From positions 1 through 7,652 of the forward strand of contig PWLL01000002.1 of NCBI GenBank assembly GCA_003559395.1: a stretch of 7,652 bases of DNA. The letters run 5' to 3'. Within the stretch, counting starts at the first letter, position 1. Each line of letters begins with the position of its first letter. The notes below the pieces were generated by a model, which ran no database searches, was not told where the DNA came from, and saw nothing but the letters and a program-made list of their open reading frames with translations. Shown here in pieces: positions 3,246-6,880 of the stretch. The translations under genes and the position numbers were made by a program. Origin of the DNA: Candidatus Iainarchaeum sp. (lineage in GTDB: Archaea; Iainarchaeota; Iainarchaeia; Iainarchaeales; CSSED10-239).

Positions 3246-3620
3246 ATGTCAGAAGAACTCGTGGACGAGATACTCACGAGACTCGATCGAGCAGGTGAGC
3301 TTGCAGGAGACGGGTTCGAGGTTCTGATCAGGCAGGTCTACCTCTCGGTCGTCACGGATGTCCTCTGGATGATCTTCCTGGGCGTGATCACAGCCTTCTT
3401 CGTCATCACGATCCGGCGTTGTGGCTACATGGGTGGAGAGCACCGGTGGCACGTCAACAAGGGGCCGTACAACGAGTCAAGGGAGCTTGCGGTGATCGGA
3501 TCATCGATCGGTCTCTTGCTCTCGACAGGCGTGATGTTCGCGCTCTTGATGGCTGTGATCCGCAAGCTGATCAACCCAGAGTTCTATGCCATCAGGTACA
3601 TCTTCCAGGCGGTGTCGTGA
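3246..3620 (+). CDS. Membrane protein, 2 predicted TM helices
   Basis: AGGAGGAG RBS (3236-3243) precedes ATG 3246. TM segments are VLWMIFLGVITAFFVITI and LAVIGSSIGLLLSTGVMFALLMAVI. Confidence 0.7.
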   Translation: MSEELVDEILTRLDRAGELAGDGFEVLIRQVYLSVVTDVLWMIFLGVITAFFVITIRRCGYMGGEHRWHVNKGPYNESRELAVIGSSIGLLLSTGVMFALLMAVIRKLINPEFYAIRYIFQAVS

Positions 3621-3769
3621 TGGTCGTCATCGTCGTTGCGTTCTTCGTCTCCTTCGTTGTACTCTTCCTGGGGCTCATGTTCATGGCACTGTTACTTGAA
3701 GCGTGGCCTCTTGTCGCGCTCCTAGTGCTGGTGTTCTGGGCTATGAGTAGAACGAAAGTGCCTCGCTAG
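3620..3769 (+). CDS. Very small (49 aa) hydrophobic membrane protein
   Basis: ATG 3620 shares one base with the upstream TGA (TGATG). Product MVVIVVAFFVSFVVLFLGLMFMALLLEAWPLVALLVLVFWAMSRTKVPR looks like a TM hairpin with a basic tail. The tracked start at 3419 would overlap the previous gene by 200 nt. Short length keeps confidence moderate. Confidence 0.5.
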   Translation: MVVIVVAFFVSFVVLFLGLMFMALLLEAWPLVALLVLVFWAMSRTKVPR

Positions 3770-3774
3770 GGGTA

Positions 3775-3803
3775 TTGCAAGATAGGGCGTTATGTGCTAG
3801 AAT
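3775..3803 (+). promoter_or_regulatory. Sigma70/SigA-type promoter with extended -10
   Basis: TTGCAA (3775-3780), a 17-nt spacer, then TGc-TAGAAT (TG 3795-3796, hexamer 3798-3803). It lies in the largest AT-richer gap of the window. Predicted TSS is about 3809-3811. Confidence 0.5.
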
Positions 3804-3828
3804 AGAGGGCGTCGGAAGAGGTATGCCC

Positions 3829-3866
3829 AAGGCCGGTACCAACAGGTACCGGCCTTTCCTCGTTTC
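3829..3866 (+). terminator. Rho-independent terminator hairpin
   Basis: GGCCGGTACC (3831-3840), AACA loop, GGTACCGGCC (3845-3854). The stem extends by AA/TT to 12 bp and is followed by TTTCCTCGTTTC. Confidence 0.6.
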
Positions 3867-3890
3867 GTGACGAGCCCACTAGGAGACCGG

Positions 3891-4511
3891 ATGACACTAG
3901 CAACTGATGTCATCGCATATCACGTGGATCTGAGCGATGAACTCTATCGTCTCAGGTTCGCCGAGGATTTCGCTGACTGGTTGATGGACCACCGCAGGGA
4001 AGAAGAGGCGCGTGAGTTCCTTCACCTGGTCAAGACGTACGAGGAGTCAACGGAGGAGTACGACCTTGAGGACGTGATCGCGATCGCCGAGGGGTTCAAC
4101 CCGATCGTCGATGTCAACGAGGAGATGGCCGGAGGCAGGAACGCTTCGGATCTCGCGATCCAGATCCTTGAGGAACAAGAAGGCAACCTGAGATGGGATC
4201 AGGAAGCTGCGTTGATCAACCAGTACATCCGTGATTCTGAGCCTGTCTCAGCAGTGCCACGGGATCTCCTCGAACCCGAGTTCCCGAACGTCGATGTGTA
4301 CTTCGATCTCAACCGACCGATCGTGCGCAACGTCCTCGGGATCCCGTTCCATCTCGCAGCCCATGGTCATCATCGCGGCGCGAGAGCGTTCATCCAGGAC
4401 ATGAAAGCCCTACTCAGGACCAAGCCGACGAACTACGCTCTGTTTCAGTTGGCTTGGTCTTACGTCATGATCTACCCAGATCCAGATCAGTACGGACAGG
4501 ACGATTGGTAA
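3891..4511 (+). CDS. Hypothetical, strongly acidic protein
   Basis: AGGAG (3881-3885) lies 5 nt upstream of ATG 3891. The tracked GTG 3867 sits in the terminator tail with no RBS. Hand count is about 41 D/E versus about 17 K/R in 206 aa. No motif recognised. Confidence 0.7.
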   Translation: MTLATDVIAYHVDLSDELYRLRFAEDFADWLMDHRREEEAREFLHLVKTYEESTEEYDLEDVIAIAEGFNPIVDVNEEMAGGRNASDLAIQILEEQEGNLRWDQEAALINQYIRDSEPVSAVPRDLLEPEFPNVDVYFDLNRPIVRNVLGIPFHLAAHGHHRGARAFIQDMKALLRTKPTNYALFQLAWSYVMIYPDPDQYGQDDW

Positions 4512-4547
4512 GCACCCGCGCACCGCGCACCAGCTAAGGAGAACGCC

Positions 4548-4868
4548 ATGGAGAAGGCAGCACCGGTCTATCCGCCACAGCCCGAGTCGATCGATGTCGA
4601 CATGACGACCGTGTACACGGTGATGTCGTTGTTGACCGTCTCGACCGTCGGGCTCGGGATCTCCACGACCTTGTTGTGGAGGAAGGCCCGGAAGAACGAG
4701 GAGTACATCACCGCTCTGGGGGACTACGTCTCGCGCCTGGTGAAGGACACCGAGTGCGGGAAGGTTGCTTACCAGACCTTCCTCGATGACGAGGAGGAGG
4801 ATGAGGTCGTCGTGTGGGACGACGAGAGCGGTTCGCCGTTCCCAACCGAGAGCCAGGAGGTTGAATGA
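4548..4868 (+). CDS. Single-pass membrane protein with an acidic C-terminal tail
   Basis: AAGGAG (4536-4541) precedes ATG 4548. TM segment is VYTVMSLLTVSTVGLGISTTLLW, followed by RKARK and then DDEEEDE. Stop overlaps the next start (ATGA). Confidence 0.7.
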   Translation: MEKAAPVYPPQPESIDVDMTTVYTVMSLLTVSTVGLGISTTLLWRKARKNEEYITALGDYVSRLVKDTECGKVAYQTFLDDEEEDEVVVWDDESGSPFPTESQEVE

Positions 4869-6748
4869 GCATCCTTGATGAGTTGATCCCGGATGCGTCC
4901 ATCGCTGAGGAGTATGTTGGGCGCAAGATACACGGAGGGCACGAAGACCTGGAGATCCTCGACTGGGCACGTCTGGTCGGGGACAACGTCCTGATCAAGG
5001 GACCGACCGGGCCAGGGAAGCGTCAGCCTCTCTCGATTCCTGTGTTGACCCCTCACGGCTGGACCACCAATGGTGATCTATCGATAGACGATGAGATCAT
5101 CGGACGGAACGGATGTCCGACCAAAGTCATCGGCCTTCATCCGATAGAGAAGGCTCTTGCATATCGGATCACCTTCAATGATGGCACGAGCACGCTCGCT
5201 GACGGTGATCATCTCTGGACCGTTCAGAGTCGTAAACAGCGCCGTACCACCGGCAGGTACCAGATCTTGACGACCAAGGAGATCCTTGACCGAGGGATCC
5301 TTGAGCATGGATCGGATCGTGCAACGTCCTACAACTGGTACCTGCCACTCGTAGACCCGATCCAGCACGACAAGGTCGAATTGGAGATCGAGCCGTACCT
5401 GCTCGGAGTCCTGCTCGCGAACGGATCGCTGACTGAGACCTCTGCGGTCTTCACAACCAACGACGAGTTCATCGCTGATCGTGTGCGTAGCGAGACCGAT
5501 GTCAACGAGACCACTCATGCAACTTCCACTGCGAAGCGATGGTTGGTCTACAACAAGGTTCCTGCGCTGAAAGATCTCGGTCTTTACGGTCTGAAGTCCA
5601 GGGAGAAGTTCATCCCCGATCACTACCTCGTGGCGCACGAGGACGCTCGTCGAGATCTTCTCGCCGGGTTGATGGACTGTGATGGGTCTTCTCGCGAGAA
5701 CCGACGTGATCGTTACTCCACCTTCAGCGTCCAACTGGCAGAAGGAGTGGCAAGTCTTGTTCGCTCGCTTGGTGGTGTTGCCAAGGTCTCAACCAGAGAC
5801 CGAAGCGACGGTGACATTGAGTACGAGGTCTCACTCTGGATGCCGGAGACTCCGTTCACTCTCCCAAGGAAGGCAGCACACTCCCCTGGCGAAGAGTGGT
5901 TCCGTGCCATCGCCTCCATCGAACCTGATGGTGACCGCGAGATGCGCTGCATCACCGTGGACGCAGATGACGGTCTGTATGTGATCGAGCATCACATCGT
6001 CACCCACAACACGATGCTGTGCCGTGCGTACTGTGCTGCGCGCGGTATCCCGTTCGTCAACATCAACCCTGGCACGGCGGTCGAGCCGTCGATGCTCACG
6101 GGGAAGGAGGTTCTGCGTTCAGCGTCGTCGTACTGGGTCGATGGGATCCTCACGGCGGCGCTTCGTCGTGGAGACGTGGTGATCCTCTTCGATGAGTTGA
6201 ACTTCTGGCCTCCAGGGGTGACGGGTTTCCTCCACTCGCTCACCGACGATCAGCGCTACATCTACCTCTACGATCATCTCGTGGAGTACGAGGACGAGGA
6301 AGGCAACAAGCAGGCGATGCCGGAGATCATCAAGGCTGCTCCTGACACGCTCATCGTCGCGGCCTACAACCCGCGCTACGAAGGGACGTTCCGCCCGAAC
6401 CAGGCGTTCGAGAACCGGTTCAACGTGCAGTTCAGGTGGGACTACTCGGAGAAGGTCGAGAACACCCTGATCTCGTTGCCGACGCTGAAGGCGATCGCGA
6501 AGGAGCTTCGGCGTATGCATGGCACCGGTGAGATCACGGTCCCGATCTCGACGAACAAGCTGATGCATTTCCAGAAGATGACCGATGATCTAGGATTGAC
6601 CGCAGCGATCGACAACTTCATGTCGTACTTCGATGGCTCCGAGCACGGTGCTGTCGAGAACGTCATGAACCTGAACCGGTCGCGTCTCAAGGAGGAGGTC
6701 AGGTCTGAGACGGGTGTCGATCCTGACAAGGGACGGTTCGTGAAGTAG
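4865..6748 (+). CDS. AAA+ ATPase of the MoxR/CobS (AAA_5) type, interrupted by an intein; predicted spliced product 297 aa
   Basis: AGGAGG (4855-4860) precedes ATG 4865. Walker A GPTGPGK (5000-5020) is completed by T at 6011-6013. Walker B VVILFDE is at 6176-6196. The AAYNPRYEGTFRPNQAFENRF segment matches the AAA_5 sensor/Arg region. Confidence 0.9.
   Translation: MSILDELIPDASIAEEYVGRKIHGGHEDLEILDWARLVGDNVLIKGPTGPGKRQPLSIPVLTPHGWTTNGDLSIDDEIIGRNGCPTKVIGLHPIEKALAYRITFNDGTSTLADGDHLWTVQSRKQRRTTGRYQILTTKEILDRGILEHGSDRATSYNWYLPLVDPIQHDKVELEIEPYLLGVLLANGSLTETSAVFTTNDEFIADRVRSETDVNETTHATSTAKRWLVYNKVPALKDLGLYGLKSREKFIPDHYLVAHEDARRDLLAGLMDCDGSSRENRRDRYSTFSVQLAEGVASLVRSLGGVAKVSTRDRSDGDIEYEVSLWMPETPFTLPRKAAHSPGEEWFRAIASIEPDGDREMRCITVDADDGLYVIEHHIVTHNTMLCRAYCAARGIPFVNINPGTAVEPSMLTGKEVLRSASSYWVDGILTAALRRGDVVILFDELNFWPPGVTGFLHSLTDDQRYIYLYDHLVEYEDEEGNKQAMPEIIKAAPDTLIVAAYNPRYEGTFRPNQAFENRFNVQFRWDYSEKVENTLISLPTLKAIAKELRRMHGTGEITVPISTNKLMHFQKMTDDLGLTAAIDNFMSYFDGSEHGAVENVMNLNRSRLKEEVRSETGVDPDKGRFVK
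5021..6010 (+). mobile_element. Intein (330 aa) with class 3 signature and a LAGLIDADG homing-endonuclease domain, inserted in the P-loop
   Basis: Removing 5021-6010 restores GPTGPGK|T. The C-terminus is THN followed by +1 Thr. Block A-like sequence is PVLTPHGWTTNGDLSIDDEIIG. Block B is ADGDHLW, with His at 5210 and Trp at 5216. Block F is MRCITVD, with Cys at 5948. Thr precedes HN at 6002. LAGLIDADG motifs are LLGVLLANGS (5399-5428) and LLAGLMDCDGS (5657-5689). Confidence 0.85.
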
Positions 6749-6825
6749 CACTGCTCGGAGTGATCCGAGAGCTGATGGGGTACTCCGCCCGCGATCGGCG
6801 CTCCTGTACTCCAGGGGCTCGTCAA

Positions 6826-6858
6826 GGAGGGGGGAGGTCTTCTCCGCCTCCCCCCTCC
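6826..6858. repeat. Perfect 12-bp G/C-rich inverted repeat (hairpin) in the ATPase-partner intergenic gap
   Basis: GGAGGGGGGAGG (6826-6837), 9-nt loop TCTTCTCCG, CCTCCCCCCTCC (6847-6858). No U-tract follows. The structure is seen directly; its function is unknown. Confidence 0.8.
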
Positions 6859-6880
6859 GATGAACCTTCGAAGGGGAACC

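Follow-up and report, generated by a model that had tools for sequence, protein, structure and literature searches.

A terminator-like leader hairpin behind an extended -10 promoter: a proposed modular cassette in DNA of an uncultured actinophage

In phage lambda the constitutive promoter PR' is followed by a terminator, tR', at +194, and 6S RNA is made unless Q antiterminates. The lambda oop RNA and 6S RNA have a layout that is comparable to a promoter-plus-terminator unit. The 5'-terminal stem-loop stabilisers and the hairpins of the T7 R0.3 type are also located just past early promoters; they carry no U tract and cause no termination.

In the PeSL elements of T4-like phages about 100 bp of intergenic DNA contain a promoter of the host type, a stem-loop that is a terminator or an attenuator, and a Shine-Dalgarno/ATG (Arbiol et al. 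2010, PMC2839356; Comeau et al. 2014, PMC4122927). [quoted passage not shown] With respect to termination, imperfect U tracts are used more effectively by the RNA polymerase of mycobacteria than by that of E. coli, with the help of NusG (PMC3993855), although the actinobacterial polymerase still requires a U tract (Czyz et al. 2014, PMC3993855). Type II hammerhead ribozymes flank phage genes (Perreault et al. 2011, PMC3088659).

Here we analyzed an operon junction in a stretch of 7,652 nucleotides, called the window in the following. The window is DNA of an uncultured actinophage, and its lineage consists of uncultured actinobacterial siphophages. We propose, with a probability of roughly 45%, that this junction contains one of the copies of a modular promoter-leader-terminator cassette, which, judged from its sequence, would end the upstream operon, attenuate its own transcripts and cap the mRNA that reads through.

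Promoter and leader hairpin at the junction

No intergenic gap on the + strand of the window is larger than the one with the promoter and the hairpin, 121 bp between the end of the 49-aa ORF at 3769 and the ATG at 3891. The features of the junction are the following:

3620-3769, + strand: 49-aa hydrophobic ORF, last of the upstream operon (gene call, L001:9730-9879)
3775-3780, + strand: -35 hexamer TTGCAA of a 'class B' promoter
3795-3803, + strand: extended -10 TGc-TAGAAT (TG 3795-3796, TAGAAT 3798-3803), with a predicted start site at 3809-3811
3813-3821, + strand: 5' arm of a basal helix, CGGAAGAGG, which can pair with 3858-3867
3822-3828, + strand: motif TATGCCC (family consensus YRTGYC), 19 nt past the -10; contains the ATG of a micro-ORF at 3823
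3829-3856, + strand: perfect 12-bp hairpin AAGGCCGGTACC / AACA / GGTACCGGCCTT (arms 3829-3840 and 3845-3856), a terminator-like leader stem
3857-3867, + strand: pyrimidine/U-rich tail TCCTCGTTTCG, an imperfect U tract that doubles as the 3' arm of the basal helix
3868-3877, + strand: conserved box TGACGAGCCC, kept in the relative L005 and in most cassettes
3881-3886, + strand: Shine-Dalgarno AGGAGA, 4 nt 5' of the ATG; AGGAGACC is identical in L005
3891-4511, + strand: 206-aa gene without assigned function, the first behind the promoter

The ATG of the 49-aa ORF overlaps the stop of a gene for a 124-aa membrane protein (3246-3620, phrog_1486). On the other side of the junction the 206-aa gene is followed, without an intervening terminator, by a 106-aa ORF and then by the gene of an intein-containing AAA_5 ATPase. 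The AlphaFold model of the 206-aa protein, which was obtained from a two-sequence alignment, has low confidence (pLDDT 62.8). An in-frame GTG at 3867 was rejected as the start of this gene; it has no Shine-Dalgarno, and the gene callers as well as the AGGAGA-N4-ATG context favour 3891.

A sigma-70 scan of the window returned TTGCAA-17-TGc-TAGAAT at 3775-3803, the promoter already read from the sequence in an earlier note, as its sole match and as the only extended -10 promoter. The spacer of 17 nt is within the allowed range of 16-18 nt, and the TGn directly abuts the TAnnnT-type -10 hexamer. The pattern TTG-N17-TGNTANNNT occurs once in the window compared to 0.06 expected occurrences, and 11 of 200 shuffled sequences contained at least one match. 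At the homologous junction TGTGnTAnnnT is present in all 12 related genomes (12/12), and in most of these relatives the promoter overlaps the end of the upstream ORF; relatives also have -35 elements of the TTGCAN type there. On these sequence grounds we consider the promoter at 3775-3803 as real, with a predicted start site at 3809-3811.

The two arms of the hairpin are 100% complementary and form eight G:C and four A:T pairs with a folding energy of -23.1 kcal/mol; the window contains no other perfect inverted repeat with arms of 12 bp. Relative to shuffled sequences the leader (3809-3895) folds with a z of -3.25. Counted from a start at 3809-3811, the stem occupies about +19/+20 to about +46/+47, and release 7-9 nt past the G:C core would give an RNA of about 51-56 nt. 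This geometry agrees with the calculation in the earlier note, and a short transcript of about 50-56 nt is a reasonable prediction.

The stem can be extended by the basal helix. RNAfold predicts -29.9 kcal/mol for 3809-3867, compared to the value of the apical hairpin alone, and an equivalent helix (AACACAC/GUGUGUU) is found in L005; longer folds favour pairing of 3858-3863 with 3869-3874 over the basal helix. The folds of the leader revealed no competing antiterminator helix that involves the 5' arm of the stem. A second small hairpin in the leader fold (CUCGUU/GACGAG) was discarded; it is not kept in L005.

Together with the stem Ts at 3855-3856 the tail reads UUUCCUCGUUUCG, that is three U followed by CC. 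A terminator scan of the window, which asks for 5 or more T among 8 positions, did not call the hairpin 3829-3856 since this tail fails the U-tract rule. The description of the element as a strong terminator was hence overstated by the standards of E. coli, because the run of U breaks off after the third. With -3.9 the tail has almost the same score as the mean of gene-end terminators (-3.93) in the same phage lineage. We propose that the 12-bp apex with UUUCCUCGUUUCG may serve as an intrinsic terminator with a moderate strength, which is typical for the lineage. Termination could still be weak, because the U tract is interrupted and the actinobacterial polymerase needs a U tract.

The cassette in related genomes

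The leader hairpin was compared with that of the closest diverged relative, L005, in which the downstream protein is 52% identical. The 12-bp stem and the AACA loop are kept in L005, while 6 of the 12 pairs differ in both bases and no pair differs in a single base; two pairs are G:U, which corresponds to A:C on the opposite strand. The covariation check recommended in the earlier note thus finds the hairpin maintained by compensatory changes. The tail of L005 (UUUUUUGUGUG) has a canonical U6 tract and was called by the terminator scan. Furthermore, the sense strand folds better in 19 of 24 cassette leaders. As judged from these comparisons, the hairpin is selected as RNA.

The same data bear on the possibility that promoter and hairpin are juxtaposed by chance, or that the inverted repeat is a palindrome which acts at the DNA level and is bound by a protein. 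The promoter pattern alone reaches only about p = 0.05 in one window, and the stem in the window, a perfect palindrome, folds equally well on both strands. Such a reading is nevertheless highly improbable: the layout is conserved and recurrent in 12 genomes, and unrelated stem sequences keep pairing, with G:U pairs and with the sense bias just described.

At this junction the hairpin occurs without a U-rich tail in 7 of 12 relatives, and this indicates that termination here is dispensable for the downstream gene. It also leaves an antitermination switch, one of the functions suggested in the earlier note, without support as a conserved feature of this junction. In 11 of 11 other relatives a terminator is located just 3' of the homologue of the 206-aa gene. 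The window and L005 have no terminator 3' of this gene and instead a terminator-like hairpin 5' of it, so that one terminator is always kept in the neighbourhood. An S2-type leader is present at the S1 junction, and a terminator has changed its place from behind the gene to in front of it.

This shift is relevant for the view that the hairpin is only a structure of the 5' UTR. It would then stabilise the 5' end of the mRNA or be a site of RNase III-type processing, as T7 R0.3 is; termination would be negligible and the tail just the 3' arm of the basal helix. In agreement with this view every predicted promoter of the family has a 5'-proximal hairpin, including class A and the 7 of 12 copies at this junction that have no U-rich tail. 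In the window and in L005 a segment past the start, rich in purines or in AC, can pair with the 'tail', which gives a stem of about 21 bp, and the hammerhead-processed mRNAs of the same phages begin with an analogous hairpin and a CUGACGAG box. We still regard a role in the 5' UTR alone as unlikely, since L005 and the S2 cassettes have genuine tracts of U4-U6 that are conserved across genomes, and since the swap of a terminator 3' of the gene for a hairpin 5' of the gene indicates a role in termination.

The complete cassette is made up, in this order, of the promoter, a YATGYC motif, a GC hairpin, a U-rich tail, a UGACGAGCCC box and a ribosome-binding site. It heads at least two further operons per genome, giving at least three cassettes per genome, and at least 15 units from promoter to hairpin plus U tract were found in 11 loci of about 13-21 kb each. 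The cassettes precede NADAR/PNK, AAA/VWA and replication blocks. A second copy is present on the same contig as the window element, 4.6 kb upstream (L001:5262-5394). The window cassette (3775-3893) aligns colinearly with seven other copies; its leader is colinear with the cassette leaders found in relatives at the start of the NADAR/PNK-phosphatase block, and GGCGTCGGAAGAGGTATGCCC of the window aligns with GGCGTCAGGAGAGGTATGCCC of L139.

At the other junction the cassette terminator (T2) comes after a separate upstream terminator (T1) in 7 of 8 genomes. The U tracts of T2 have a mean score of -4.5, compared to a mean of -3.78 for the upstream terminators, and are at least as good. With U tracts of this quality and the order T1-promoter-T2 in 7 of 8 genomes it is hard to accept that the cassette only marks a boundary. 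The sequences suggest that efficient termination of the transcripts initiated at the promoter is itself selected, which would favour regulated read-through or a functional short RNA. The order of promoter and then terminator appears deliberate, because the cassette recurs and follows a separate terminator in most genomes at one junction. What the earlier note had singled out as an unusual order is therefore not accidental; the promoter is present in all 12 relatives and the layout repeats at other operon starts.

A functional short RNA would imply that the terminated transcript of about 51-56 nt is itself the product, a small RNA of the phage. The unit of promoter plus terminator is indeed conserved and recurrent, in a layout comparable to that of lambda oop or 6S RNA. 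Its single-stranded parts, however, are not conserved save for YRTGYC, and the stems are fully different between copies, so that the copies show no shared base-pairing target. Directly 3' of the unit there is moreover always a ribosome-binding site with a gene, and a search of the 20.6-kb contig with Rfam at E<=1 found no family at the element. A small RNA is for these reasons very unlikely.

Database searches were performed with the window and its proteins. Neither the window in a megablast nor its 206-aa and 124-aa proteins in a tblastn matched any of the INPHARED phages; IMG/VR contained no relative of the 206-aa protein, and the homologue search with the 124-aa protein returned only the query itself. 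The JGI metagenomes provided only 5 loci. The genome contigs searched contained no relatives and hence offer no prophage or host clue. The DNA pattern of the cassette had only 4 matches in IMG/VR, which were judged to be unrelated; they are on low-GC contigs without an equivalent leader hairpin. The loci of the nearest cultured phages, Gordonia phage GMA6 and Brevibacterium phage Cantare (ATPase with 35-42% identity), have no such promoter and no hammerhead, and no cultured model of the cassette was found among them. The sequence features of the element, their conservation, the compensatory change, the recurrence and the sense-strand bias are established.

Candidate functions of the leader terminator

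In the cassette reading, which we prefer, a host RNA polymerase of the sigma-A type would start at about 3810 at the extended -10 promoter, and the first 60 nt of the transcript would fold as a long 5' stem-loop. The hairpin would stop transcription coming from the upstream operon; as there is no other terminator between this operon and the next genes, it would be the operon boundary, and it very probably ends the upstream operon. The earlier note had considered that the hairpin merely does this and that the promoter match is fortuitous. The first part very probably holds, but a promoter found in 12 of 12 relatives is not fortuitous. A part of the promoter's own transcripts would be stopped early as RNA of about 51-56 nt, and this early termination would throttle the 206-aa gene and the AAA ATPase/VWA block. 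In transcripts that read through, the UGACGAGCCC box and the ribosome-binding site would be preceded by a stable stem-loop at the 5' end. We infer in this way the start site, actual termination with its efficiency, and the stabilising role.

The cassette could also be a regulated switch, which we consider somewhat unlikely. The cassette promoters would be constitutive and their transcripts would stop at the leader terminator until an early protein of the phage or a modified polymerase overrides it; the factor is possibly loaded at the fixed YRTGYC about 12 nt past the start site. The override would turn on the middle and replication operons, in a logic like that of lambda Q or N, though the cassette would belong to neither system. 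Such a switch would fit the T1-promoter-T2 order in 7 of 8 genomes, where the U tracts of T2 are as strong as or stronger than those of true operon-end terminators. It would also fit the motif, which occurs 14-27 nt past the -10 in 25 of the 31 promoters of class B, against 2 of the 19 of class A and 5% of random windows. In 18 of these 25 motifs the position -10, counted from the U, is a G; this resembles the consensus pause, reportedly defined by Larson and colleagues in 2014 as G-10/Y-1/G+1. Many terminators are furthermore located inside co-directional gene arrays and must be read through, and the early small-gene array, a possible source of an antitermination factor, is under strong TTGACA promoters of a class of their own. 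On the other hand, Pfam and PHROGs gave no match to an antiterminator in the neighbouring genes, the motif occurs also at class B promoters without a downstream U-tract hairpin, and the U-rich tail is missing at this junction in the majority of relatives mentioned above. The downstream genes are also not late, and there are several copies per genome and not one late promoter.

These last points also undermine the likeness to lambda PR'-tR' and Q that had been drawn in the earlier note. Pfam and PHROGs detect no Q-family gene directly upstream, where the genes encode the phrog_1486 membrane protein and the 49-aa hydrophobic ORF. Besides the lack of late genes downstream and the several copies, no TAnnnT-type pause element occurs past the start site; the conserved YRTGYC, which is TATGCC here, has no final T.

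A more far-reaching and doubtful proposal is a two-tier programme on the host polymerase, with early class A promoters and with class B promoters that combine a leader terminator with a phage antiterminator. This would be an independent Q-like switch in Actinobacteria, and its cassettes would be hammerhead cassettes in which the 5' half is replaced by a promoter. A processive antiterminator of the phage would load at the class B pause and override the leader terminator. Class A promoters, of the form TTGACA-17-TGnTAYAGT and with a 7-bp 5' hairpin that has a GAAAUA/GAAGCA loop, would drive small early genes whose common transcript is cleaved by hammerhead ribozymes; class B has the fixed, pause-like motif GGAGAGGUAUGYC at about +12, and in many copies a leader terminator comes after it.

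The micro-ORF described in the earlier note exists (ATG 3823 to TGA 3868-3870, 15 codons, MPKAGTNRYRPFLVS), but its frame is not conserved across the 24 cassettes. In 21 of the 24 the distance between the -10 and an RTG is constant, and in the other 3 the motif is missing; the frame behind the RTG has between 2 and 354 codons, its stop is not conserved, and a Shine-Dalgarno is often missing. In an attenuation by a leader peptide, translation of the micro-ORF through the hairpin would melt the stem and allow read-through. The existence of the ORF and the purine-rich GGAAGAGG just 5' of it speak for this mechanism, as does L005, where an ATG at the equivalent place starts a 13-codon ORF that stops at the same TGA of the box. 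In addition to the variable frame, however, L005 and others have no Shine-Dalgarno (ACACACGU before the AUG), the purine run of the window is only 1 nt from the AUG, the AUG of simple hairpins is located in the loop, and the predicted folds contain no alternative antiterminator helix. The comparison with relatives largely refutes a leader peptide, which is scarcely credible and was rejected.

If the proposed cassette is true, a portable unit of about 120 bp would set operon boundaries, the expression level and the 5' structure of mRNAs in uncultured actinophages. The PeSL concept, which to our knowledge has so far been described only in T4-like phages, would be extended to another phage group and to a geometry with the terminator inside the transcript. 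The conserved T1-promoter-T2 units, with good U tracts and a fixed motif, would give grounds to test for pausing near the promoter or antitermination in Actinobacteria, for which we know of no established phage antitermination system. The apparent descent from hammerhead cassettes would show that ribozyme-processed and promoter-initiated mRNAs converge on the same 5' UTR. The cassettes are also candidates for insulated promoter parts in actinobacterial synthetic biology.

Comparison with hammerheads, lambda and PeSL cassettes

Genuine type II hammerheads are arrayed between the small early genes of the same phages; a descriptor finds 19 in relatives and 0 at the window element. Class A promoters are located ahead of the early small-gene array, with hammerhead ribozymes between these genes. 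The window leader shares with type II hammerheads the order of hairpin, (C)UGACGAG(U/C)CC, CA and Shine-Dalgarno, and its predicted start site is located approximately where cleavage would make the 5' end of the mRNA; the box TGACGAGCCC resembles the CUGACGAG-UCC 3' strand of the type II hammerheads of the lineage. In contrast to these ribozymes the window reads GUGACGAG, without GAAA, stem III or C3 and with 11 nt from hairpin to box. The hammerhead covariance model R1 gave no match at 3800-3890 even at E<=10. The leader was therefore rejected as an active or split ribozyme; it is at most a derivative.

In lambda PR'-tR'/Q, as predicted here, a constitutive promoter is followed by a terminator, which gives a short RNA unless it is overridden, and a promoter-proximal sequence element is found at a fixed position. 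The terminator would be at about +50 here and is at +194 in lambda, and each genome has at least three cassettes ahead of early/middle genes and not a single late promoter. The 5' stem-loop stabilisers and T7 R0.3 likewise have a stable hairpin in the first tens of nt of the transcript, ahead of the first gene, but they differ in that they carry no U tract and no termination. Actinobacterial terminators with an imperfect U tract (Czyz et al. 2014, PMC3993855) share the GC-rich hairpin followed by an interrupted U tract; here the putative terminator is in a 5' leader just past a promoter and not at a gene end.

The PeSL cassettes again unite a promoter, a stem-loop and an SD/ATG in one conserved intergenic cassette with many copies per genome. 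Here a cassette of one junction type is found at another junction, which may reflect modular shuffling. The present cassettes differ in host and phage group, since these phages are actinobacterial siphophages, and in the stem-loop, which is wholly inside the transcript from +19 to +47; they have in addition the fixed YRTGYC and the hammerhead-like UGACGAGCCC box.

Promoter and hairpin ahead of the 206-aa gene

The window is part of L001, a 35.5-kb metagenomic contig (window position = L001 position minus 6110), and the junction sequence is identical in three shorter contigs. The gene content is phage-like. A phrog_1486 membrane protein and a PNK-type HAD phosphatase are encoded, as is an AAA_5 ATPase of CobS/MoxR-like type that a LAGLIDADG intein interrupts; downstream of the ATPase come genes for a VWA protein and for HTH proteins, and to the left lies a DnaB/primase block in divergent orientation. 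The flanking genes had no nucleotide or protein match in deposited phages. Gordonia phages (GMA6, Chidiebere, others) and Brevibacterium phage Cantare share synteny with the window lineage and encode ATPases at 35-42% identity to that of the window; in closer uncultured relatives the identity is 70-84%. Because these closer relatives carry WhiB genes, the host is taken to be an actinobacterium. The comparison drew on 13 related loci (L005, L132, L133, L137-L146). The element is real and conserved, in a phage lineage without a cultured member.

The ATPase (4865-6748) has 627 aa, versus 295-308 aa in intein-free relatives. The intein, which contains a LAGLIDADG endonuclease and is ~330 aa long, interrupts the protein directly after the P-loop GPTGPGK. 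Since it starts with R, not C/S, and ends THN|T, it looks like a class 3-type intein, judged by these residues. One relative (L142) has a separate intein in DnaB. The ATPase-VWA spacers of L001 (12859-12990; window 6749-6880) and L005 (3095-3281) hold very stable G/C-run hairpins, GGAGGGGGGAGG...CCTCCCCCCTCC, without a U tract.

Elements of the junction in the window
3775-3780, + strand: -35 element TTGCAA; 17-nt spacer ending in TGc
3798-3803, + strand: -10 element TAGAAT, 25 nt from the hairpin start
3829-3856, + strand: hairpin AAGGCCGGTACC-AACA-GGTACCGGCCTT
directly 3' of the hairpin, + strand: tail TCCTCGTTTCG
3868-3877, + strand: box TGACGAGCCC
3881-3886, + strand: Shine-Dalgarno sequence AGGAGA
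3891, + strand: ATG of the downstream gene

The earlier note had described a strong promoter followed by a strong terminator. The promoter, TTGCAA-17-TGc-TAGAAT (3775-3803), is present and is the sole match in a sigma-70 scan of the window; the stricter pattern TTG-N17-TGNTANNNT occurs once, versus 0.06 expected. The 12-bp hairpin is likewise there, with a folding energy of -23.1 kcal/mol; the window contains no other perfect 12-nt inverted repeat. "Strong terminator", however, was an overstatement: the tail is three U and then CC, below the criteria of the terminator scan. A functional small RNA ending at this hairpin, also suggested in that note, appears quite improbable. By E. coli rules the hairpin is a marginal terminator; the host is actinobacterial. 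Mycobacterial polymerase, aided by NusG, terminates more efficiently than the E. coli enzyme at imperfect U tracts, and it still requires a U tract (Czyz et al. 2014, PMC3993855).

The junction and its putative terminator in related genomes

The junction is shared by 12 genomes, and every one of them carries an extended -10 promoter (TGTGnTAnnnT) there. This promoter usually overlaps the final codons of a small upstream ORF and is followed in each genome by a hairpin, a box and a ribosome-binding site. The box, (CU)GACGAG(U/C)CC, is recognisable in most of them. The uncultured relative L005, whose downstream protein is 52% identical to the 206-aa protein, has the same 12-bp, AACA-loop architecture, and there the hairpin runs into UUUUUUGUGUG, a canonical terminator. 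Covariation with this relative, the kind of check named in the earlier note, bears the hairpin out: half of the 12 pairs are the same in the two stems, and each of the other six differs in both of its bases, so that one-sided changes are absent (L005 has two G:U pairs).

Tails differ among the other genomes. In two (L137 and L139) CUUCUUC accompanies a GC hairpin of 10 bp, and in one (L143) UUUCCUG accompanies a long AU-rich palindrome. A U-rich tail is absent in the remaining seven, six of which show a plain 7-8-bp hairpin abutting the box, e.g. GGUAGGAG-AGCUAUGC-CUUCUACC, and one (L144) a different, long-range stem. Such tail-less hairpins would suit a pure 5' stabiliser or processing site, and the U tract of L005 would not; we consider this reading unlikely. 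The tails of the window and L005 can pair with the segment just after the predicted start site (CGGAAGAGG/CCUC-G-UUUCG and AACACAC/GUGUGUU, respectively), and therefore their GC hairpin looks as if it had been inserted in the loop of an ancestral simple hairpin.

The most telling comparative evidence on termination comes from the other end of the gene. A terminator of the GGCCCC...GGGGCCUUUCUCAUGC type directly follows the homologue of the 206-aa gene in 11/11 other relatives (e.g. L133:9358-9437). It has been lost in the window (4512-4547) and in L005, the two genomes with the 12-bp, AACA-loop leader hairpin; both keep CGCGCACCGCGCA, a mini-hairpin in the window, which normally lies 3' of that terminator. 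The pattern suggests a swap, and thus that one terminator is always kept in this neighbourhood. In the window it has apparently relocated 5' of the gene and lies between promoter and coding sequence.

Best supported, with a probability of about 0.45, is the reading of the element as an internal promoter. Its leader hairpin would be a boundary terminator for the upstream operon, would partially attenuate transcripts from its own promoter, and would form a 5' cap structure on read-through mRNA.

Recurrence of the cassette and its fixed motif

An extended -10 promoter scan over 11 loci gave 50 sites in two classes. Class A (19 sites, TTGACA-17-TGnTAYAGT) stands at the head of early small-gene arrays, in most copies with a 7-10-bp hairpin at about +7 without a U tract. 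The loops are GAAAUA, GAAGCA or AGAUAGA (e.g. L001:2236-2292 and 2748-2811), and these structures are similar to boxB-type sites. The first class A promoter is immediately followed by a gene-free stretch of ~400-450 nt (L001:2271-2700; L133:3571-4005; L137:2444-2835; L139:2843-3295; L138:2711-3128) that contains the conserved blocks GTAAGTAGCGCACCGCGCATWCCGTGA, GAGGTCTTCGGATCCGTTA and AGACAACCTTCGGGATCT and ends in a terminator. This stretch had no Rfam match at E<=1 and is a candidate phage non-coding RNA.

The window promoter belongs to class B (31 sites, TTGCAN-like -35). Class B promoters with a GC hairpin and U-rich tail within 20-45 nt occupy two further conserved positions: S2, ahead of the NADAR/PNK-phosphatase block in 8 genomes (one of these copies is L001:5262-5394, on the contig that carries the window), and S3, after the primase gene in 5 genomes. 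At S2 a separate terminator ends a few nt before the -35 in 7/8 genomes, so that the layout is T1-promoter-T2-CUGACGAGCCC-SD-ATG. U-tract scores are better for T2 (mean -4.5) than for T1 (mean -3.78) and gene-end terminators (mean -3.93); the window scores -3.9. The window leader can be aligned colinearly with the S2 cassettes of relatives, which makes the cassette a portable unit. Sense-strand folding is better than antisense in 19/24 cassette leaders, which argues for a function at the RNA level; chance or a DNA palindrome is a very improbable explanation.

The micro-ORF reported in the earlier note (3823-3870) exists. In 21/24 cassettes an RTG follows the -10 at a distance of 17-21 nt, but the frame behind it varies from 2 to 354 codons, has no conserved stop and often lacks a Shine-Dalgarno sequence. 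A leader peptide is therefore unsupported, and control through one is hardly credible. What is conserved is the motif YRTGYC (TATGCCC at 3822-3828 in the window), found in 25/31 class B promoters, 2/19 class A promoters and 5% of random windows. Its distance from the -10 is fixed at 17-21 nt, GGAGAGG often precedes it, and 18 of the 25 motif-bearing class B promoters have a G ten positions upstream of its U. This spacing resembles the G-10/Y-1/G+1 consensus pause, and the motif looks like such a pause or a factor site. A similar YAUGY follows gene-end terminator stems by 6-9 nt in many copies. Mainly because of the fixed motif, a factor-dependent antitermination switch stays alive as a possible, though doubtful, alternative. 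The T1-promoter-T2 units also favour it; against it, Pfam and PHROGs searches of the neighbouring genes gave no antiterminator homologue and most relatives lack the U-rich tail at this junction.

Hammerhead-like box and known systems

Type II hammerheads of the form GGAC-GAAA-[stem III]-UC-[stem I]-CUGACGAG-UCC make up the spacers of the early small-gene arrays. With a strict descriptor 19 copies were found, versus 0 in shuffles. Their covariation is strong (99.6% of cells paired; both bases changed in 11 pairs), and ~29 copies in relatives are recovered by a covariance model. They occupy 68-92-bp spacers between small early genes (66-89 aa), with six consecutive copies on the window's contig (L001:3082-4580, ~2.3-3.8 kb upstream of the window's left end) and further arrays at L133:4193-5066, L137:3141-3800, L139:3610-4315 and L144:171-1638. 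Arrays of hammerheads flanking phage genes are already known (Perreault et al. 2011, PMC3088659); those of this lineage are unusually dense.

Flanked by the hairpin on its 5' side and by CA-SD on its 3' side, the cassette box UGACGAGCCC mirrors the 3' part of these hammerheads, and in L138 the match (CAUCUGACGAGUCCCACAAGGAGACC) is complete. The window element itself is ruled out as a ribozyme: it lacks GAAA, stem III and C3, and the hammerhead covariance model does not match it even at E<=10. The cassette may plausibly derive from a hammerhead cassette in which a promoter took the place of the 5' half. Between hairpin and Shine-Dalgarno sequence, the box (Y)UGACGAG(Y)CC is conserved in the window (3868-3877) and in most copies of the cassette, even though C3/U4 are often lost and the hammerhead core is thus incomplete; this points to a function other than self-cleavage.

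The earlier likening to lambda PR'-tR'/Q holds for the common logic, but three of the four defining features examined here are absent. Among described systems the closest is the PeSL cassette of T4-like phages (PMC2839356, PMC4122927), a repeated, recombinogenic unit of promoter, terminator stem-loop and Shine-Dalgarno sequence. Its stem-loop overlaps the promoter, whereas that of the window cassette lies in the transcript.
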